A DNA stretch of 37,820 nt from a virus (lineage: Duplodnaviria > Heunggongvirae > Uroviricota > Caudoviricetes): IMG/VR virus record IMGVR_UViG_3300014927_000119. One strand, written 5' to 3'. Positions 1 to 37,820 of the stretch are shown here, in pieces. The notes beneath the pieces were generated by a model, which had not been told where the DNA came from, ran no database searches, and worked only from the letters and a program-made list of their open reading frames with translations. Numbering within the stretch: position 1 is the stretch's first letter; every line of letters starts with the position of its first letter. A program made the translations under genes and the position numbers.

Positions 1-1362
1 ATGTTTAAACCGGAACTCCTTTCCCCGGCGGGAACGCTGAAAAATATGCGTTACGCTTTCGCTTATGGCGCAGATGCTGTTTATGCGGGCCAGCCGCGTT
101 ACTCCCTGCGTGTGCGCAACAACGAATTTAACCACGAAAATCTCCAGCTCGGCATCAATGAAGCCCACGCGCTGGGGAAAAAGTTTTATGTCGTGGTCAA
201 CATTGCACCGCACAACGCCAAGCTGAAAACCTTTATCCGTGACCTGAAACCGGTGGTGGAAATGGGGCCGGATGCGCTGATTATGTCCGATCCAGGGCTG
301 ATTATGCTGGTGCGTGAGCACTTCCCTGAAATGCCGATCCATCTCTCGGTACAGGCTAACGCCGTGAACTGGGCGACGGTGAAATTCTGGCAGCAAATGG
401 GCCTGACCCGCGTGATCCTCTCTCGCGAGCTGTCGCTGGAAGAGATTGAAGAGATCCGCAATCAGGTGCCGGATATGGAGGTAGAGATCTTCGTTCACGG
501 CGCGCTGTGCATGGCCTACTCCGGTCGCTGCCTGCTCTCTGGCTATATCAACAAGCGCGACCCGAACCAGGGCACCTGCACCAACGCCTGCCGCTGGGAA
601 TACAACGTCCAGGAAGGGAAAGAAGATGACGTTGGCAACATCGTACACAAGTACGAGCCGATTCCGGTGCAAAATGTTGAGCCGACGCTGGGTATCGGCG
701 CACCAACCGACAAAGTGTTTATGATCGAAGAGGCCCAGCGTCCGGGCGAGTATATGACCGCGTTTGAAGATGAGCACGGCACTTACATCATGAACTCGAA
801 AGATCTGCGCGCCATCGCCCATGTAGAACGCCTGACCAAAATGGGAGTGCATTCGCTGAAAATCGAAGGCCGTACCAAATCTTTCTACTATTGCGCACGC
901 ACCGCGCAGGTTTACCGTAAAGCTATCGATGACGCAGCTGCGGGAAAACCATTCGATACCAGCCTGCTGGAAACTCTGGAAGGTCTGGCGCATCGTGGCT
1001 ATACCGAAGGTTTCCTGCGTCGTCATACTCACGACGATTATCAGAACTACGAATACGGTTATTCAGTTTCTGACCGCCAGCAGTTTGTTGGTGAGTTTAC
1101 CGGTGAGCGCAAGGGCGACCTCGCGGCGGTAGCGGTGAAAAATAAATTCTCCGTTGGTGACAGCCTTGAGCTGATGACGCCGCAAGGCAACATTAACTTT
1201 ACCCTTGAGCACATGGAAAACGCCAAAGGTGAAGCTATGCCGGTCGCACCAGGCGATGGTTATACTGTGTGGCTCCCGGTCCCGCAGGATCTTGAGCTAA
1301 ATTACGCGCTCCTGATGCGTAATTTCTCCGGGGAAACCACGCGTAACCCCCACGGTAAGTGA
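1..1362 (+). CDS. yegQ: YegQ, peptidase U32 family protein (host gene)
   Basis: 453-aa ORF starting at window position 1; N-terminus MFKPELLSPAGTLKNMRYAFAYGADAVYAG matches my recollection of E. coli YegQ; followed by cyaR as in the E. coli yegQ-cyaR locus. Confidence 0.9.
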   Translation: MFKPELLSPAGTLKNMRYAFAYGADAVYAGQPRYSLRVRNNEFNHENLQLGINEAHALGKKFYVVVNIAPHNAKLKTFIRDLKPVVEMGPDALIMSDPGLIMLVREHFPEMPIHLSVQANAVNWATVKFWQQMGLTRVILSRELSLEEIEEIRNQVPDMEVEIFVHGALCMAYSGRCLLSGYINKRDPNQGTCTNACRWEYNVQEGKEDDVGNIVHKYEPIPVQNVEPTLGIGAPTDKVFMIEEAQRPGEYMTAFEDEHGTYIMNSKDLRAIAHVERLTKMGVHSLKIEGRTKSFYYCARTAQVYRKAIDDAAAGKPFDTSLLETLEGLAHRGYTEGFLRRHTHDDYQNYEYGYSVSDRQQFVGEFTGERKGDLAAVAVKNKFSVGDSLELMTPQGNINFTLEHMENAKGEAMPVAPGDGYTVWLPVPQDLELNYALLMRNFSGETTRNPHGK

Positions 1363-6516: not shown

Positions 6517-7035
6517 TCACAGGCCGATATTTCGGCGGTGTTGCTCCAGCCGGTCGACGCCGTTCACCTTCTCAATCATGTTGATGGTGTCGATTTCGAC
6601 CAGCTCCTTACCGTCCATCGTCAGCCGGAAATAGGTGCAGACCACAGAGATTTTCGACTCGGTGTCTTCTCCCTGTTTACCCTCGCCGGTGTCGATTTCT
6701 TTCTGACGTCCACGCATGACCACCTCGACGGCCACCGTTTCGCCGGTATCGTCGCGCTGGTAAGAGCCTGCAAAACGAATCGGCACGACATCCACACCGG
6801 TTGCTGCGTAAAGCTCCCAGATAACCGAATCCGGGAAACCACCGAGCGACCACTCCATTGACAGGGCATCGTCATCAAGGCCGAGGTCTACCGGTGCGCT
6901 GCCGTTCATCCCCGCACCGCGATAGTTTTCGAGCTTACGGGTCAGTTTTGGCAGCGTGACGGACTTTGCAACGCCCTGATAGCTGTAGCCGTTCAGAAAG
7001 ACGTTCATTAACTTGAGTTTGCGCGGCATTGCCAT
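6517..7035 (-). CDS. FII: Tail tube protein FII
   Basis: 172 aa, P2 gpFII length and position. Confidence 0.92.
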   Translation of the reverse strand: MAMPRKLKLMNVFLNGYSYQGVAKSVTLPKLTRKLENYRGAGMNGSAPVDLGLDDDALSMEWSLGGFPDSVIWELYAATGVDVVPIRFAGSYQRDDTGETVAVEVVMRGRQKEIDTGEGKQGEDTESKISVVCTYFRLTMDGKELVEIDTINMIEKVNGVDRLEQHRRNIGL

Positions 7036-7047
7036 CGGTCAGGCTCC

Positions 7048-8238
7048 TTAATTGCTGTTAACCGAGGTGACCAGATTTGCCAGATATTTATCGGTGATAC
7101 GCTGGCGCAGGGTCAGGTTTTCAAGAGGAGGCACCGGGGTATAGTCGTAGTCGATATACAGTTTTCCTGCCTTGAGGGTTTCCGCATCGTTGGATTCTTC
7201 GCTGAACCAGCAGGTCGCATCCACGATATAGCCGTTTGTTTTCAGCTCACGGAATTTGGCATTGATGCCGTCAACGATGTCGCGAATCAGCGTTGCGGTG
7301 ATGGGCTTGTCCACCGCCCACATGTGCGCCTCAGCCATCGTGTCGGCCATCACCTGCGCGGTGCGGGTGTAGTTTTCAAAGAGGAACAGCGGGTCATCAG
7401 AGCAGGTACGGTTACCCCAGAATCGGAAACCGTCGCGGCGAATCAGCGTAGTGACGCCTGACTCGTTAAGCAGGTCAGCATCGGTGCCGGACTCCTGCAA
7501 ATCCCAGAATACAGATGCGCTGATGCCGGTAACACCGTTCACCCCGACGTTGGACAGCGTTTTATGCCAGCCCTGCTCCTGGTCGATTTTGGCACGCAGA
7601 CCCAGCGCACGGGCGGTGGCATACGCGGTGGCGGTGGTACTGGTGACCGTATCCCATGCGAGGAAATCCGGCCAGATGACCATCAGCTCACGCTGGCTGA
7701 AATTCTGGCGGTAGGCTTTCACCTCGGAAATGGTCTTACAGCCCCATGCGCTGATATACCCGAAAGCGCGCAGCTTCTGACAGACTGATGCCAGTGCAAC
7801 AGCCACCTCTTTGGTATCCAGTCCCGGCACGCCGAGAATACGCGGTTTAACACCGGTTACCGACTCCGCCGCCAGCAGGGCTTTCAGTCCGGTGTACTGG
7901 CCGTTTTCGTCGGTGGTGCCGATGATATTGGACACGGTCTGCGCGAGTTTCGTTTCTTCATCGTCGCCGGTGCCGTCTTCCACACGCACGACAACGGTGA
8001 CCGGTTTTGACTGGTCGGCGATGGCCTGCAACGATGCCGCCAGCGTGCCTTTTTTACCGGCCTTTGCAATTGCGCTCTGCACATTGGTAATCAGCACAGG
8101 TTTATTGAGGGGGAAGGTTTCCGCATCCGCATCGCTGGCCGTGCAGACCATGCCGACAATGGCAGTGGATACAGTGGAAATGACGCGGGTGCCCTCGTTA
8201 ATCTCCAGCACCTGCACGCCGTGATGATAGTTACTCAT
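7048..8238 (-). CDS. FI: Contractile tail sheath protein FI
   Basis: 396 aa, P2 gpFI length and position; GGAG 9 nt upstream of the ATG. Confidence 0.92.
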   Translation of the reverse strand: MSNYHHGVQVLEINEGTRVISTVSTAIVGMVCTASDADAETFPLNKPVLITNVQSAIAKAGKKGTLAASLQAIADQSKPVTVVVRVEDGTGDDEETKLAQTVSNIIGTTDENGQYTGLKALLAAESVTGVKPRILGVPGLDTKEVAVALASVCQKLRAFGYISAWGCKTISEVKAYRQNFSQRELMVIWPDFLAWDTVTSTTATAYATARALGLRAKIDQEQGWHKTLSNVGVNGVTGISASVFWDLQESGTDADLLNESGVTTLIRRDGFRFWGNRTCSDDPLFLFENYTRTAQVMADTMAEAHMWAVDKPITATLIRDIVDGINAKFRELKTNGYIVDATCWFSEESNDAETLKAGKLYIDYDYTPVPPLENLTLRQRITDKYLANLVTSVNSN

Positions 8239-8523
8239 CCGTTTAACTCCGTGGTTAATGGGCGCAACTATTTTCTGTTGTGCAGAGCATGAGACGCTAT
8301 TTGACCTGGCTGGTCAGTGGATGAAACAACAGACAAAGAAAAGGCGGGTAATCCGCCAGCCTGTCATGATTTGCACTCACTCCTTTTCCAACTGACAATT
8401 TACATAGCCCAAACGCTATCAAATCTGACAGTCTGCTTTGAGCGAATAGCGGACCTTACTTTTACTGTGGTATATTAATCAAAGGAAGTTTTTACATCAT
8501 TTAACCCAGAAAGGATGTTATTT

Positions 8524-9153
8524 ATGGCACGAACATACCCGTCAGAATGGAGTAAATTTTGCAAGACCATAAATACGAATAATGGATTTTCATATTACAC
8601 CAGTAATATTAAAGCCCAAATTCTTATTGGAGACATAAATCGATTTGCTGCCAGATATGCTGTGGCAGAGGACTTCAACGGTGTTGATATTATGGGTTCT
8701 ACTATAGAAACAAGGCTTGGGTATGAAGCATTGATGAGGGCATTACTTACCTGGAGCGTCGTGGAAACATATTTTAATATATTTTCAGTCGGATTAACTG
8801 ATGTTTATACATGTTTTCCTTTTACACAAAAGGAAAAGCATGACATCAGAAGCAAACTTAATGCGATTGGTAATGACACAATTAAATTTTATACATTCAT
8901 TTCTTTGAATTGTAACGCTCGTCATAAAACAAACACAAATGACTTTATAGCGAATAATGATTTTAACCCAATAATGCTATTGTCTGCCATTCGTCATGTT
9001 TTTGGCCACGGTGATCTAAGCGCTAATGTTAATAATGTTGACCCTGAATCAATAAATAAAATCGTAAATATCTTAAAGAAAGAAATTATAACTAAAATAG
9101 ATACTTCTTTCTCTTTATTAGTTCAAATGCACCCTAATTATTCTACTGTATGA
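8524..9153 (+). CDS. Hypothetical protein, cargo ORF in the Z/fun slot (209 aa from ATG 8524; 212 aa from ATG 8515)
   Basis: AT-rich ORF on the strand opposite the late genes; AAGGA (8511-8515) 8 nt upstream of ATG 8524; TGgTATATT extended -10-like element at 8468-8476. No motif I can recognise. Confidence 0.6.
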   Translation: MARTYPSEWSKFCKTINTNNGFSYYTSNIKAQILIGDINRFAARYAVAEDFNGVDIMGSTIETRLGYEALMRALLTWSVVETYFNIFSVGLTDVYTCFPFTQKEKHDIRSKLNAIGNDTIKFYTFISLNCNARHKTNTNDFIANNDFNPIMLLSAIRHVFGHGDLSANVNNVDPESINKIVNILKKEIITKIDTSFSLLVQMHPNYSTV

Positions 9154-9298
9154 TCTTGATGATAGGTTTTTACGAAAATAATCACCTTGGGTTATTTGAT
9201 GGATACTTTTTTTAAGTAACCCTTATTAATTTACACATTATTTCTGCCATATCCTTAGCTGATACAAGGTGAACGTCCCACGTAGTATTTTACCATTA

Positions 9299-10048
9299 TT
9301 ACTGGCTATTCAATTCCCACTCAATACAGTCAGTCATCATAGGAATAAAACTTTCACAAGATGAAGAAAAAACCTCGACAAATTTCGATTTATAACTTTC
9401 TGGAACATGCCAATCCTGAGGGATGCTATCTACGATAGATTGATAATAATCAACTGGTATTTCACATATTCTATTCATCCATAATGAATACCCTTCTATA
9501 GCATGGATATTTCCACAATGATATGGCGATGATTCAGTAAATAATTGATTAGGAGTCCAGATAAGGCCGTCCTCACCCCATGTACTGCCATTATTATCTA
9601 CAAAAGCAATGCCAGCATCCATAAATAGCAATTTATCATTTAACAACTTGCAAGTGTCATTTTTTACATCGCCTATAGATAACCAATTATCAAATATTGA
9701 TTTCCCATACAGATCACTCAACTGGTCGTTACTATATTGATAATTTTCAGGCAACTCTTTTAAATCATGTATGAACTCATATGCAATAACACATGAAGTT
9801 GATATTTTTAGTTCACTTCTTACATTTTCAGAAAGTTGTACAACATGGCCTTTTGGCCAAGGCAACTCTATTTTTTCGGCTAGTTTAAAAGCCACATACT
9901 CATTAAATAATGCTTTAAATTCATGCCCAGATTCGTTTAAATATGTTTTTACAAACCACTCTCCCCCTAACTCATCAGTACCTATAAAAGGATGAGAATG
10001 ACTTATCGACTTTTCCAGCTTATCGCTAATGACATTAATTGTTATCAC
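9299..10048 (-). CDS. Hypothetical protein, cargo ORF in the Z/fun slot (249 aa, GTG start)
   Basis: AT-rich ORF; first in-frame start is GTG at 10048-10046 with AAGG 5 nt upstream; contains LGGEWFVK, GDVKND and FMDAG motifs that loosely resemble kinase-fold signatures. Confidence 0.55.
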   Translation of the reverse strand: MITINVISDKLEKSISHSHPFIGTDELGGEWFVKTYLNESGHEFKALFNEYVAFKLAEKIELPWPKGHVVQLSENVRSELKISTSCVIAYEFIHDLKELPENYQYSNDQLSDLYGKSIFDNWLSIGDVKNDTCKLLNDKLLFMDAGIAFVDNNGSTWGEDGLIWTPNQLFTESSPYHCGNIHAIEGYSLWMNRICEIPVDYYQSIVDSIPQDWHVPESYKSKFVEVFSSSCESFIPMMTDCIEWELNSQ

Positions 10049-10252
10049 GGGGACCTTAAATAATCATAAAATGATGAATGAATTATAATTGGATAACCAA
10101 GAGCAGTCCAAACAATTTCTAGCGATTAGTTGATTACCTGCATATTAGCGTTTTGTTGATTTTTGATGTCTGCTTCTGGCACAGAGCGGACTGTCAGATT
10201 AGTCTTTACTCTGTGTCATAGATATGTCAGCTCACACCAGAGCTCATACAAC

Positions 10253-10780
10253 TTATTGCGGCATTTCCGGCCATTTAGGATTTGCAGGATCCACACGACT
10301 GACCAGAACGCTGTAACGCTCCCATGCATCCAGTCGGCTACGCTCCTCATCTGTTGCCATGTTCAGTCTGACCGCGCGCTCCAGCGGCAAAATCACGGAT
10401 TCAGCATCTGCAAGAAGTCTGGCTTTCCGGTTTTCTGCCTGCTGCAGCAATTCCTCTGCCGTATAAATGCGTTTAATCACTTTGCCGTCCTTAAACATCC
10501 AGCCCCCTGAAATGTCCGCCCGTCGGTTAGCAGTAATATCCGCCACTTCAACAACACTTAATCCATCCGGTCTGATAGCTGTCACATCCTTTTCCACATA
10601 GCGGATAATATTATCTTTGTCGTACGCTATTTTTATCGTGTCATCAGCAAAATACTTTTGTTCTTCGTACCAGTTCTTACCATCTTCTGAAAAAAACCAG
10701 ACAACATCAAAACCCTTTGTCAATTGATATTGTTCAACCGTTTTTGGATTACCCGCCGTAATATTTTTTAAATGCTGCAT
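10253..10780 (-). CDS. G: Tail fiber assembly protein G
   Basis: 175 aa, P2 gpG length; immediately downstream of H. Confidence 0.9.
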
Positions 10781-25527: not shown

Positions 25528-27549
25528 TTATAATTTCCTCAACAATTTCCCATTGTTCTTATCAAAGGATATCATTGTATAGTCATACCCTTCTAATGCC
25601 TCTTTTAAGACATTTTCATCTTCTGATGTAGCAAAAATGATCTGCCCTTGTCCTTTTGTTGTTTCTGCAGCATCTTTAAGTAACTCGGCAAAACTTACTT
25701 TATTTGCTTCTTGTTGACGAGGCTCATCAAACACAATCAATCCAGGGTGATTTGTTTGAAATTTAGAACCAACAACAAATAAACTTATTAAATAACCCCA
25801 AATGATTCTTATTCCATCACTAGCTGATGTGTCAAAACCTATATCATATCCTTCCCTAGTAGGTAAGTAATTATCTTCTGATATTGACACAAGTTTAGAA
25901 TCAAAACTTGTAAAATTATATTTTTCTAATCGTGCAACGACTTCTTTATTAAGAAATTTTAACTTATCGGCATCATTACGCGACAAGAAATTATCTGGCA
26001 ATCCTTTTCTTTTCGCGATAAGCTTTTTATATCTACGGTGTAATGAATCCAACTCCAGTCTAATGTCCAATATACTTTTAATGCCATCGTTAATGGCATT
26101 AATTTTATTCTCAATGTTTATTTTACGTCTCAGAAACTCCTCCTGAACAACCATTGAGGGATATTTTGACTCCCTTAATGCATTAATATCAACTCTAATC
26201 TTGGCTATTTCCCCCTCTAAATCACTCCTCTCAACATCTTTAAGCTTTAATTGCTTTTCACTATCCGACAGAACAAACTCAAATGCTTTTACTTGCTCTT
26301 TAATAAAGTTCAAACTATCTTCATATGTCATCAGATTTTCTTGCGATGAAAAACTTAGCAAATTATCATTATAACTTGCACCACAAGTCGGACAAATATT
26401 TGACATTAAATCTGTTGACTTATACGCATCCGAAGATGATATTTTCTTTAAATCTTCATACTTCCTTTTATCTTCCAACAGATTATACAATCTGTTTTTG
26501 GTCGCCTGAATTTGATATTGAATATAACTTCTATGCTCACAAATCTCTTTAATCTTTAATTCCAGAGAGTTAATTTCATCATTTTTTTGACCTAATAACT
26601 TAACCACTGATAATTGTAAAGTTTGTTCTTCTTGCTCACCAAGAGTGTCAAACTTAATTTCTTGCAACTCTTTTTCCAGTTCATTACGAACATCAACAAT
26701 AGATCTAACGACACTACCATTTTTAATAATCAAATCTATCTTATAATGATCAAATTTTGCCACTGGTTGTTCAGGAATCCCTGTGACAACTGACGACAAT
26801 TTAGAAGCAATAACTTCTGCATTGTGTTTAATTAACTTCCAATCATGATAAATAATATCAAGTTCATTTCTTAACGAACTACGCAATAAAATATTATCAT
26901 TAACATCAAGAGACATTAAAAATTCTAGAGCTCTTTTCTTTGGCTCTTTAATTCCAAATTGTGTTGGTACAGTCGCCATAATTGACGACCATCCTTTTTT
27001 TTGCTCAACATACCATGCAGGGAAAAGTACGGATGGATAAAGAATAGTGTCCTTCCCATTATGGTTTGGAACATTTGGCAAACTCCAACCTATAAAATCA
27101 GCTAACCACTTATAGAAACCACGTTCCCTTTCAGTATCGCCCTCTCTATGTAAAAAATAAGTACCACTCTTACTTTTTACATTATTCTTCTCATCTATAT
27201 AAATAACATTATTATTATCGTGACCGATAATATTCCTTTTCAAAGATGCTTCTATTCCCTTATGATTCTTTATTTTTAGCAAAACATAAGATGATATTAC
27301 ACTAACTTCAACATTATCTTTTGTCGTTAGTGCTCTAGTCAAAGATGGAGGGAATGGGATTTTTCCAGAACCGACACCTAATGCCTTTTCCATCCCAAGT
27401 GCATATGCAATCCCATTCATGCAAGTTGATTTACCATGAGAATTCTCAACTCTTAATAAAAACAAGCCATTTGAAAAAGGTATACTAACACCATAACGCC
27501 CATCCGAAGTATTTGCTACTAACTCCAATGAAATAATTTCCAACGACAT
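25528..27549 (-). CDS. SMC/Rad50/SbcC-like ABC ATPase with a long coiled-coil insert and central CxxC hook-like motif (LmuB-like?)
   Basis: 673 aa; N-terminal SMC_N-like LFLLRVENSHGKSTCMNGIAYALG (Walker A GKST at nt 27424-27435); roughly residues 290-540 are heptad-rich in K/E/L with CPTCG at residues 386-390 (nt 26380-26394); C-terminal Walker B LIVFDEP (D at nt 25726-25728). Last gene of a 3-gene operon. Confidence 0.75.
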   Translation of the reverse strand: MSLEIISLELVANTSDGRYGVSIPFSNGLFLLRVENSHGKSTCMNGIAYALGMEKALGVGSGKIPFPPSLTRALTTKDNVEVSVISSYVLLKIKNHKGIEASLKRNIIGHDNNNVIYIDEKNNVKSKSGTYFLHREGDTERERGFYKWLADFIGWSLPNVPNHNGKDTILYPSVLFPAWYVEQKKGWSSIMATVPTQFGIKEPKKRALEFLMSLDVNDNILLRSSLRNELDIIYHDWKLIKHNAEVIASKLSSVVTGIPEQPVAKFDHYKIDLIIKNGSVVRSIVDVRNELEKELQEIKFDTLGEQEEQTLQLSVVKLLGQKNDEINSLELKIKEICEHRSYIQYQIQATKNRLYNLLEDKRKYEDLKKISSSDAYKSTDLMSNICPTCGASYNDNLLSFSSQENLMTYEDSLNFIKEQVKAFEFVLSDSEKQLKLKDVERSDLEGEIAKIRVDINALRESKYPSMVVQEEFLRRKINIENKINAINDGIKSILDIRLELDSLHRRYKKLIAKRKGLPDNFLSRNDADKLKFLNKEVVARLEKYNFTSFDSKLVSISEDNYLPTREGYDIGFDTSASDGIRIIWGYLISLFVVGSKFQTNHPGLIVFDEPRQQEANKVSFAELLKDAAETTKGQGQIIFATSEDENVLKEALEGYDYTMISFDKNNGKLLRKL

Positions 27550-27550
27550 A

Positions 27551-28027
27551 TTAACCCACCTGAAATATTTTATTAATGTTAGTTTCGGACAGTCCAGCCT
27601 TATGTTTATTTAGCACCAACCTTTCTTCTTTGAACACATCAAGAGAAAGCAATTTCTCAGCGACCTTAAGCCCCTTTTCATTTATTTTGAACGCTCGTTC
27701 ATTTCTCAAAATAAAATCCTCTGCTAATAATAGCTGTATTGCTCTATCTAAAGTTGGATCCAATCTTACTTCAGGCTTTAAACCTTCTTTGTTTAAAAGC
27801 CAGAATTCAAACATTGCTTCATTATTCTCTGACTTTAACATCCAATTAATTAAATGAAGTTTTTTTAAAGAACAGCAACCAGCTCTCCCTGTGACAAGGA
27901 ATATTATCAGCAACAAACTGCAACGCCACAATGGTCTCATATCACATGGCAAATGTTCAGGTCGTTTATTAAACGTAAACGGCCTTCCTATTATTTCATC
28001 TATCGTTATATGCATTTGCTTTTCCAT
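27551..28027 (-). CDS. Small partner protein of the 3-gene operon (158 aa; possible kleisin/LmuC-like adaptor)
   Basis: ORF separated by 1 nt from both neighbours (stop at 27551-27553, ATPase ATG at 27549); AT-rich; no motif I can recognise. Confidence 0.55.
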   Translation of the reverse strand: MEKQMHITIDEIIGRPFTFNKRPEHLPCDMRPLWRCSLLLIIFLVTGRAGCCSLKKLHLINWMLKSENNEAMFEFWLLNKEGLKPEVRLDPTLDRAIQLLLAEDFILRNERAFKINEKGLKVAEKLLSLDVFKEERLVLNKHKAGLSETNINKIFQVG

Positions 28028-28028
28028 T

Positions 28029-28949
28029 CTAAAAATCTAAAGGGCATCTTATAAGCCAATCAGAAATAACTCCCCATGTTATCTTATCCAAGTCAGCCTG
28101 TTTAAGCGTACTAACTTCCTCTTCAATACATTTCTTTAACAAAGCGATTTCATCTTTCATTATATCTGATGGTTTCGCATCTGATGAAGTAAGAAGAAAG
28201 AGACCTACCAAATTACGTTCTCTATGTTGAACACAGTTATAGATAATTTCATAGATATCAACCCAGTCTCTCTTCAAAGCATCCAGCAAGTTTTGATAAT
28301 CAAGATATTTTTGTATTAAAAACTCTCTATATAAACCCTGCCTAGATACATCATCATTTATCTTAGGTAATTTTAAATTTAGCTTATCTAAAAAAGATGT
28401 ATTTTCACTAATAAAGTTAGCAGCATTCTCAGCCGTCGCATCATTTATATTAAAGCTTAATTGATAGTTATTTTTGCGAAGAAAGAACGCTTCTTCTATA
28501 TAATTTCGATCTGTTTGCACAACTATTTGAAAATCATCAGCAACGTAAGAAATCCCTAACTCTCTTACTTTTAATGATTTTTTTGTGCAATATTGACTTA
28601 ATTTCGCCGATTTATTATATGGTGTAGCTAATATCCAGCGGCTAATTTTTAATGTGCCAAAAAGCTCCTCTAATTCTTTAATGTTATCCTGAGAAAACTT
28701 TTTTATATCAGTATAAATCTTTTTTTGTTGCGCTTTATAAAGCTTATCAATATCACTCGACTGCTCAGGCAAGTAACACTGAAAAACATGACCACTCAGA
28801 GTGTAACACTCCAGCCCAAAGTCGCCTCCATGCTCATCTGGCAAGTCACAACAGTTAGCAGGCTTATAATGTAGCCAAACAATATTTTTGAAATATGATT
28901 CCCACGCTTTTGGGTCACTATAAGGATCGTTATACATCGCCAAGCCCAT
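28029..28949 (-). CDS. First gene of the 3-gene operon (306 aa; candidate effector/sensor, LmuA-like?)
   Basis: ORF ending 1 nt before the next gene; AT-rich; acidic/Cys-containing N-terminal segment CCDLPDEHGGDFGLECY; function not assignable from sequence alone. Confidence 0.55.
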   Translation of the reverse strand: MGLAMYNDPYSDPKAWESYFKNIVWLHYKPANCCDLPDEHGGDFGLECYTLSGHVFQCYLPEQSSDIDKLYKAQQKKIYTDIKKFSQDNIKELEELFGTLKISRWILATPYNKSAKLSQYCTKKSLKVRELGISYVADDFQIVVQTDRNYIEEAFFLRKNNYQLSFNINDATAENAANFISENTSFLDKLNLKLPKINDDVSRQGLYREFLIQKYLDYQNLLDALKRDWVDIYEIIYNCVQHRERNLVGLFLLTSSDAKPSDIMKDEIALLKKCIEEEVSTLKQADLDKITWGVISDWLIRCPLDF

Positions 28950-36920: not shown

Positions 36921-37820
36921 ATGGCAGAATTTCCCGCCAGCTTACTGATTCTTAATGGCAAAAGTACTGACAATTTACCATTGCGCGAAGCAATTATGCT
37001 GTTGCGTGAGGAAGGAATGACGATCCATGTGCGGGTCACCTGGGAGAAAGGCGATGCCGCACGATATGTAGAGGAGGCCCGGAAGTTGGGCGTCGCAACG
37101 GTGATTGCCGGTGGTGGCGATGGCACCATTAATGAAGTTTCTACGGCGTTGATTCAGTGTGAGGGGGATGACATACCCGCGCTAGGAATTTTGCCATTAG
37201 GAACCGCCAATGATTTTGCCACCAGTGTAAGGATTCCTGAGGCACTGGATAAGGCGCTGAAACTGGCAATTGCCGGTGACGCCATTGCGATAGATATGGC
37301 GCAGGTCAACAAACAAACCTGTTTTATTAATATGGCGACAGGCGGATTTGGGACGCGTATTACCACAGAAACGCCGGAAAAATTAAAAGCCGCGCTGGGT
37401 GGCGTCTCTTACATCATTCATGGCTTAATGCGCATGGATACTCTGCAACCGGACCGTTGTGAGATCCGCGGTGAAAACTTTCACTGGCAAGGTGACGCCC
37501 TGGTCATTGGTATTGGTAACGGGCGTCAGGCCGGTGGCGGTCAGCAATTGTGCCCGAACGCGTTAATTAACGATGGCTTGCTGCAACTGCGCATTTTTAC
37601 CGGCGATGAAATTCTTCCGGCTCTCGTATCAACATTAAAATCTGACGAAGATAACCCGAATATTATCGAAGGCGCTTCGTCGTGGTTTGATATACAAGCC
37701 CCACACGAAATCACTTTTAATCTTGATGGCGAACCGTTGAGCGGACAAAACTTTCATATTGAAATACTTCCGGCGGCGTTGCGTTGTCGATTACCACCAG
37801 ATTGCCCATTGTTGCGTTAA
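36921..37820 (+). CDS. yegS: YegS, lipid kinase (DAG-kinase-like catalytic domain; host gene)
   Basis: 299 aa; GGGDGT motif ([12 protein letters not shown]); N-terminus [15 protein letters not shown] matches my recollection of YegS; stop at the window end. Confidence 0.9.

Follow-up and report, generated by a model that had tools for sequence, protein, structure and literature searches.

Kinases of the HipA family are known as toxins that depend on an antitoxin (HipB, HipS or, in HipAD, a DUF3037 protein); HipA phosphorylates GltX, HipT phosphorylates TrpS, and both autophosphorylate a Ser-rich loop. HipAD, or DS-6, is a validated two-gene system of DefensePredictor in which the kinase DS-6A, a protein of 249 aa assigned to PF20613, is partnered by DS-6B, a DUF3037(+DUF1829) protein, and in which the substitution D139A in DS-6A abolishes defence (PMC13092281). 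A HipA-like and DUF3037 pair adjoining Retron-Sda1 is sufficient for defence, and deletion of the DUF3037 gene is toxic (PMC12548924); the pair is listed in PADLOC as the candidate PDC-M66. Here we describe a gene of the IMG/VR virus record IMGVR_UViG_3300014927_000119 (Caudoviricetes), the whole 37,820 nt of which were analysed and are referred to as the window. The gene (9299-10048, minus strand, GTG start) encodes a divergent 249-aa kinase of the HipA_2 family (PF20613). Judged from its sequence, it is probably a single-gene anti-phage kinase without an antitoxin partner, carried as cargo in a P2 tail-gene hotspot and distantly related to the toxin kinase of HipAD.

The profile of the window protein's family aligns with DS-6A over 221 columns (hhalign probability 99.8%, E = 1.3e-29), and BLASTP of the window protein itself against DS-6A returns 22% identity (E = 6e-5). 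The two proteins are of the same length, fall into the same Pfam family and are homologous over ~220 residues, sharing an N-terminal [GS]-x-[ST]-x-P-F motif, a Lys/Glu pair, the catalytic Asp (D139 of DS-6A, D127 here), the metal-binding Asp and a C-terminal I-P-x-x-W motif; both are also found on mobile, defence-associated DNA. However, DS-6A is neutralised by a DUF3037(-DUF1829) protein encoded in its operon, whereas neither the window gene nor any of its examined homologues has an adjacent DUF3037 gene. The catalytic loop of the window protein reads D-x-K-x-D-T and its metal motif MDAG, as compared with D-R-x...N and IDH in DS-6A. The PDC-M66A profile, which is matched by DS-6A (6e-15) and by the distant relatives P0070 (2.3e-22) and P0026 (3.3e-9), is not matched by the window protein.

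The initial annotation of this DNA had noted an open reading frame (ORF) of 249 aa at 9299-10048 and likened its product to small atypical kinases. The ORF is present, on the minus strand, and when its product was compared with kinase-like families, as that annotation had proposed, the match to the Pfam model HipA_2 ('HipA-like kinase') passed the curated threshold, at 31.3 bits against a gathering score of 27 (E = 1.6e-7). The match spans residues 17-224 and profile positions 12-217 of 240. Ratios of nonsynonymous to synonymous substitution (dN/dS) of 0.18-0.36, as compared with 10 homologues, indicate that the gene is under purifying selection; with the HipA_2 match, this lifts the resemblance to kinases above chance. 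The protein also matches phrog_3162 (E = 4.6e-10), a PHROG without an assigned function, and has no match to HipA_C or HipA_N at E ≤ 10 in the Pfam scan. A scan of 1.8 billion representative proteins returned 133 relatives at E ≤ 1e-3, mostly of 250-290 aa, and conservation was counted in an alignment of the 103 that are full-length. HipA_2 is matched by 99 of these 103, the PI3_PI4_kinase model by 17, and HipA_C by some; the same domain is precomputed for all 22 close homologues, whether these are full-length or partial.

Structure prediction agrees with this assignment. An AlphaFold2 model built with 21 homologues (mean predicted local distance difference test score, pLDDT, 88.6; predicted template modelling score, pTM, 0.89) shows the bilobal protein-kinase-like fold of the HipA / PI3-PI4-kinase type, and its best matches are HipA-like and PI3/PI4-kinase-like enzymes. 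Foldseek against the PDB placed PI4KII-alpha, VPS34 and CtkA on top, each with a probability of 1.00. The fold-comparison figures were highest for CtkA (14.0), PI4KII-alpha (13.3), CotH (12.2) and Shewanella HipA (12.1), lower for HipT (10.0) and E. coli HipA (9.7), and lowest, at ≤8, for Hanks kinases, an aminoglycoside phosphotransferase and WaaP. Neither of the outcomes named beforehand as speaking against a kinase, a non-kinase fold or the lack of any kinase-family profile match, was thus encountered. The proposed kinship with APH (PF01636) or Kdo kinases is another matter: neither family gave a profile match or the closest fold match, and this identity was rejected on both grounds. The Hanks-type signature, a GxGxxG glycine-rich loop with an HRD motif, is likewise lacking in the window protein. 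A PDB sequence search with the close-clade profile returned nothing at E ≤ 10, and one with the wider family profile returned marginal PI3K matches only, which were used for motif alignment. The protein very likely has a HipA_2-type kinase fold; it is a small single-domain kinase of the HipA / PI3-PI4-kinase branch within the protein-kinase-like fold.

The better-known members of this branch differ from the window protein in several respects. As compared with the kinases of the type II toxin-antitoxin systems HipBA and HipBST (E. coli HipA, HipT and Shewanella HipA), it is ~190 residues shorter than HipA (249 vs ~440 aa) and lacks the N-terminal HipA domain, and its locus has no HipB, HipS or upstream antitoxin ORF. 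CtkA (JHP0940) of Helicobacter pylori (PDB 3akj) is only 15% identical and has no sequence-level match to it; CtkA has been described as a kinase that acts on host cells and is proinflammatory, whereas nothing suggests that the window protein is secreted. PI4KII-alpha and VPS34, the top Foldseek matches, can be aligned by profile across the catalytic loop and DFG segment, but these are large eukaryotic lipid kinases with extra domains, as compared with the minimal bilobal core here, and the Asn of their DRHxxN motif is Thr in the window protein.

The residues expected of an active kinase are largely retained. The initial annotation had singled out three motif strings, all of which are present: LGGEWFVK lies at residues 27-34 as reported, SIGDVKND at 124-131 rather than 125-131, and LLFMDAGIAF at 140-149 rather than 141-149. 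It had also chosen D127 and D144, 17 positions apart, as the catalytic pair. Both the spacing and the choice were borne out: these are the two most conserved positions of the family, D144 being invariant (103/103) and D127 present in 99 of 103 relatives. The family profile aligns the region ~127-150 with the VPS34 segment 'GDRHLDNLLL...HIDFGYILG', which comprises the catalytic loop and the DFG segment; D127 falls on DRHxxN and D144 on the DFG Asp, suggesting a catalytic role for the former and a DFG-like, metal-binding role for the latter. D127 is also the residue that aligns with D139 of DS-6A, experimentally essential for defence. The codons of the catalytic loop (residues 127-132, D-V-K-N-D-T) occupy 9653-9670 (minus strand), with D127 as the putative catalytic base and the loop aligned to DRHLDN of VPS34. 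Those of the DFG-equivalent D144-A145-G146 occupy 9611-9619 (minus strand), and the D-A-G motif proposed earlier holds, FMDAG being invariant in the close clade.

The earlier reading of a D-x-K-N motif was right as to D127 and K129, which are conserved, but not as to N130, which varies even among close homologues (N/T/Y/D/P); the pattern of the close clade is D127-x-K129-x-D131-T132-C-K-L, with K129 and D131 invariant. Position 132, five residues after the catalytic Asp and usually the metal-binding Asn, is N in 59 and T in 28 of the 103 relatives, and is Thr132 here. From the alignment, the invariant D131 at +4 may substitute for this Asn as metal ligand. K34 (K in 80, R in 20 of 103) lies at the end of model strand 30-34, and E50 (87/103) on helix 43-59; alignment and model together suggest that this putative pair, encoded between 9949 and 9899 on the minus strand (K34, 9947-9949; E50, 9899-9901), corresponds to the ATP-binding Lys and the alpha-C Glu. 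P210 (96/103) and W213 (91/103) form a family-specific C-terminal motif.

The GG of LGGEWFVK, by contrast with what had been proposed, does not behave as a glycine-rich loop: only G28 is moderately conserved (72/103), and in the model it forms a turn between strands 21-25 and 30-34 rather than the loop after the first strand, where the glycine-rich loop of kinases sits. That loop comprises residues 11-20, where the model is least confident (pLDDT 66), and carries the family motif [GS]16-x-[ST]18-x-P20-F21, of which the DS-6A counterpart is GSTQPF. We infer from the alignment and model that residues 11-20 are a better candidate for the nucleotide loop than the GG; the codons of residues 14-21 (SISHSHPF, with conserved Ser/Thr18) lie at 9986-10009 (minus strand) as a candidate nucleotide-binding, P-loop-like loop. 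The kinase is likely to be catalytically active.

The gene appears to travel alone. A Shine-Dalgarno-like AAGG (10054-10057, minus strand) stands 5 nt upstream of the GTG start and recurs in 6 of the 7 homologue loci that were aligned, which come from five genera, and a promoter scan predicts a sigma-70-type promoter, TGGACT-17-TATAAT (10/12 consensus matches), at 10082-10110 (minus strand). Both belong to an upstream block of ~140 bp that travels with the kinase gene and is conserved with the homologues in Citrobacter, Morganella, Dickeya, Serratia and Xenorhabdus. No same-strand small ORF was found upstream or downstream of the kinase gene; in the 204-bp gap to the tail-fibre assembly gene, no same-strand ORF of at least 20 aa lies inside the conserved block. 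The Rfam search gave no family match, its sole hit being a nonsensical snoRNA (E = 0.31), and no convincing terminator or structured element was seen near the gene. Since the block travels with the gene while no neighbour, small ORF or Rfam element is shared, the unit is best described as one gene with its own promoter.

Searches for a protein partner point the same way. No HipB (helix-turn-helix) or HipS antitoxin gene lies upstream, and no neighbour is conserved across contexts; no DUF3037 gene (PF11236) occurs among the called neighbours in loci with precomputed Pfam, and tblastn with DS-6B returned nothing at E ≤ 1 in the window or any of 35 loci. The one gene beside the kinase within the cargo is convergent with it (8515-9153, plus strand) and encodes an all-alpha, HEPN-like protein of 212 aa, probably 209 aa from an ATG at 8524, with an invariant R160-H-x-F-G-H165 motif. 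It adjoins the kinase solely in a near-identical cassette: the kinase occurs without it in Morganella, Proteus, Dickeya, Serratia, Xenorhabdus, C. sedlakii, RIT691 and IMG/VR contigs, and its family is found apart from the kinase in Yersinia, Pantoea and Vibrio. It was therefore rejected as a partner on its distribution and its lack of similarity to DS-6B, and is mobile in its own right.

The entire window corresponds to a P2-like prophage; it encodes a GPA replication protein and an integrase together with tail genes, and its insertion site lies between a Peptidase_U32 gene (1-1362) and a yegS-like DAGK_cat/YegS_C gene (36921-37820). The kinase gene is low-GC cargo in its Z/fun slot, between the tail-fibre assembly gene G (10253-10780, Caudo_TAP) and the sheath gene FI (7048-8238, Phage_sheath_1); the island has a GC content of 29-36%, as compared with 51-60% in the backbone on the sheath side and ~40-50% on the tail-fibre side. 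Phage P2 itself has a gene of 299 aa at this site, between gpFI and the tail-fibre assembly gene, and Z/fun is cited as a defence/accessory locus of P2 (PMC13586616). The kinase gene and the convergent 212-aa gene together make up a low-GC cassette of 1757 bp (8431-10187, delimited by blastn) that is 98.9% identical to part of a Citrobacter werkmanii genomic island. In a megablast search of 5,426 complete E. coli genomes and a phage collection, only the island flanks found matches, in 964 of the genomes and 67 phage records. In other E. coli prophages the slot is filled by SIR2, restriction endonuclease, DUF4145, acetyltransferase and NUDIX/HAD proteins.

The cargo is bracketed by an imperfect inverted repeat with arms of 33 nt (left, 8422-8454; right, 10168-10200; 79% complementary), and both arms correspond to the left and right inverted repeats annotated in the P2-EC67 Z-region record AJ512685. 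The locus thus resembles known P2 Z/fun cargo (P2 Fun(Z), P2-EC67 Z-region ORF1) in its gpG-gpFI slot, in its flanking inverted repeats and in being low-GC foreign DNA with its own promoter, which is predicted here; the known cargo proteins, however, are unrelated to the window kinase. In Morganella, Dickeya and Xenorhabdus, outside any P2 context, the kinase gene is likewise preceded by the inner half of the right arm (GTGCCAGAAGnGGACAT). The segment GTGCCAGAAGnGGACAT may belong to a site of recombination by which the cassette is moved.

The close homologues (62-99% identity) fall into no more than 23 clusters, every one of them from Enterobacterales (Escherichia, Citrobacter, Morganella, Proteus, Serratia, Dickeya, Pectobacterium and Xenorhabdus). 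The clade is rare, occurring in 4 of 185,579 species-representative genomes and 3 IMG/VR contigs when the close-clade alignment was used as query; tblastn detected no homologue among the phage records (50,697 genomes). The kinase homologues recur in prophage hotspots and in other mobile or defence-rich DNA. The Morganella homologue stands beside a lambdoid integrase and next to an AAA_15/AAA_21 ATPase, that of Proteus in a genomic island with radical-SAM-like and DUF2971 genes, that of Dickeya in an integrative and conjugative element adjoining a DEAD helicase, and that of Xenorhabdus adjoining an integrase. Those of Serratia and one IMG/VR contig occupy the other P2 hotspot, after gpA; another IMG/VR contig has the gene beside tail-fibre genes. 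The C. sedlakii homologue lies between metabolic genes and the outgroup P0024 (40% identity) between ordinary chromosomal genes. No neighbouring gene is common to the contexts examined.

These data suggest that the gene is a prophage-borne superinfection-exclusion or abortive-infection gene, in the manner of DS-6A. The kinase would be made in the lysogen from its own predicted promoter and would be catalytically active as a Ser/Thr kinase; upon infection, it would phosphorylate an essential host factor (a translation component) or a phage protein, and phage production would be blocked. With neither a DUF3037 nor a HipB antitoxin, the kinase needs another form of restraint, most likely low intrinsic activity (Thr132), autophosphorylation within the Ser-rich loop 14-18, or the requirement for a trigger that comes from the phage. 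The surroundings are of a defence type, with SIR2 and restriction cargo in the same slot elsewhere and Lamassu in the prophage's other hotspot. We regard this explanation as a whole, a HipA_2 kinase acting as a prophage-borne anti-phage gene, as having an even chance of being correct, and on the present analysis the odds of an anti-phage function as such are equally balanced. A more specific version, in which the 249-aa kinase is a self-contained one-protein immune module, sensor and effector at once and switched on directly by a phage product, is possible but doubtful. Such a module would have dispensed with the DUF3037 antitoxin and would be kept inactive either by the changes in its active site or by phosphorylating its own Ser-rich loop.

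Several observations weigh against an anti-phage kinase of this kind. Defence, toxicity, kinase activity and substrate are inferred throughout, and an antitoxin-less kinase toxin is unusual for the HipA_2 family, of which the window protein is a weak, peripheral member (31.3 bits, vs 257.9 for DS-6A). PADLOC has no match for it at E ≤ 10, and the PADLOC and NCBIfam scans gave no meaningful match for either cargo protein. The canonical catalytic-loop Asn of HipA_2 is replaced by Thr132 in the clade, and the Gly and Lys/Arg of the family's P-loop-like motif are Ser16 and His19 here; these substitutions mean that activity could be reduced or altered. Lipid kinases (PI4KII-alpha, VPS34, MavQ) are among the best structural matches, so the substrate may be something other than a protein. 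Additionally, the C. sedlakii and P0024 homologues are surrounded by ordinary metabolic or regulatory genes, and nothing visible there points to mobile or defence-related DNA.

Some of the same features would suit a protein that has the kinase fold but is not a protein-kinase toxin: a pseudokinase with a binding or scaffold role, or a kinase with a small-molecule, lipid or nucleic-acid-linked substrate, modifying for example a component of the host envelope or a phage-specific metabolite. The change of the catalytic-loop Asn to Thr132, the degenerate P-loop-like motif of the clade, the lipid kinases among the top fold matches and the relatives that match the PI3_PI4_kinase model are all consistent with this, and the missing antitoxin is easier to explain with a non-toxic enzyme. 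However, D127, K129, D131, D144, K34 and E50 are kept under purifying selection, which would be unusual in a pseudokinase, and D131 at +4 could stand in for the Asn as metal ligand; furthermore, the closest structural match, CtkA, and the closest characterised relatives, DS-6A, HipA and HipT, are all protein Ser/Thr kinases. We consider such a protein unlikely.

The restraint expected of a toxin might instead come from a second part that has gone unrecognised. The kinase would then be the toxin of a two-gene module, completed by the 212-aa HEPN-like gene or by an antisense or 5' untranslated region RNA antitoxin within the upstream block. Loss of the partner is toxic in HipAD, so some restraint of the window kinase is to be expected, and the 140-bp block is conserved beyond the needs of a promoter. 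The two genes travel as one cassette, shared by this prophage and the C. werkmanii island, they have adjacent accession numbers in E. coli records, and a Chloroflexia homologue has a co-directional upstream gene for an RNAIAH protein with a weak HEPN_Swt1 match. Pairing of a kinase with HEPN in RNase L and Ire1 offers a loose parallel, the kinase controlling the RNase or the reverse. Yet the 212-aa gene is absent beside the kinase outside the near-identical cassette and occurs without it elsewhere; the genes are convergent and form no operon; the 212-aa protein does not resemble DS-6B/DUF3037; the ~190-aa proteins encoded beside two outgroup kinases are related neither to one another nor to it; and the upstream region yielded no Rfam family and no same-strand small ORF. 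A two-gene module is accordingly quite improbable. A weaker variant of the one-protein immune module considered above is that the kinase has begun to pair with HEPN-type RNases (the 212-aa neighbour and the upstream gene of the Chloroflexia locus) as a split kinase-HEPN system.

Even less probable is a lysogenic-conversion factor unrelated to defence, serving HipA-like persistence or growth control or acting as a CtkA-like effector on eukaryotic cells. HipA-family kinases are classically tied to growth arrest, the annotation of the P2-EC67 Z-region ORF reads putative lysogenic conversion protein, and non-defence cargo such as cytolethal distending toxin also occurs in P2 hotspots. However, the recurrent neighbours are defence-type genes, and in none of the contexts did we notice a secretion signal or an adjacent secretion system, although no predictor of signal peptides was run. 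Among the hosts are plant pathogens (Dickeya, Pectobacterium), the insect associate Xenorhabdus and bacteria from the environment, a range that disfavours a vertebrate-directed effector. A chance resemblance of motifs in an ORF that is no kinase or no real gene, to which the unconserved GG loop and Asn of D-x-K-N might have pointed, is refuted by the HipA_2 match, residue conservation, fold matches and purifying selection, and its probability is negligible.

The kinase reading itself is in effect already in databases, through the NCBI name and the Pfam family: an identical protein is recorded in NCBI as an E. coli 'HipA family kinase' on 26 contigs, and the named close homologues mostly bear the same name. 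Our analysis adds that the protein is homologous to the validated HipAD kinase, that it consistently lacks a partner and that its gene is placed in the P2 Z/fun slot. In the literature, we found no mention of PF20613; neither Rousset 2022 nor the 2026 NAR P2/P4 paper mentions a HipA-like kinase in P2, and the searchable parts of the DefensePredictor supplements contain neither the window protein nor its name. Within a kinase family known for its antitoxins, this clade moves among prophage hotspots, an integrative and conjugative element and islands as a single partner-less gene with its own predicted promoter. If it does act in defence, it would represent a minimal HipA-like kinase that can be controlled without an antitoxin, would add to the P2 Z/fun repertoire a compact single-gene system missed by current finders (PADLOC), and, being small and tractable, would lend itself to studies of the triggers of HipA-type kinases in infection and of their substrates. 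If it does not, it is a correctly annotated accessory kinase of unassigned role.

Some further observations concern the neighbouring genes. In Yersinia (L023, 1012-1494, minus strand) and Pantoea (L024, 4107-4589, minus strand), a convergent 160-aa gene with no Pfam match follows the 209-aa HEPN-like gene; it takes the position of the kinase in the window and is unrelated to it. In a Chloroflexia metagenome-assembled genome (L019), a 196-aa gene (761-1351, plus strand) lies upstream of, and on the same strand as, a 34%-identical HipA_2 homologue (1497-2336), and its product has the RNAIAH motif and a weak match to HEPN_Swt1 (E = 0.017). It is the second instance in which a HEPN-like gene stands beside a partner-less HipA_2 kinase, though this may be a coincidence. 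The 192-aa genes adjoining the outgroup kinases P0026 and P0027 were set aside, being unrelated to each other and to the 212-aa protein.

In Morganella (L001), the ATPase (6929-8716, minus strand; 595 aa, AAA_15/AAA_21) is convergent with the 92%-identical kinase at the edge of the lambdoid prophage; ATPases of this type are common in defence systems. The main P2 hotspot of the window, between the portal gene and gpA, carries three Lamassu genes (25528-28949, minus strand) that have no Pfam match at E ≤ 1e-5 and are recognised by PADLOC as LmuB (1.1e-98), LmuC (2.5e-23) and LmuA (1.1e-29). P0024, the closest outgroup kinase, has no prophage within the 8.7 kb examined around it; in that other genome (L028, 259-3324) it stands by itself beside the very host genes, Peptidase_U32 and yegS-like, that flank the prophage in the window.

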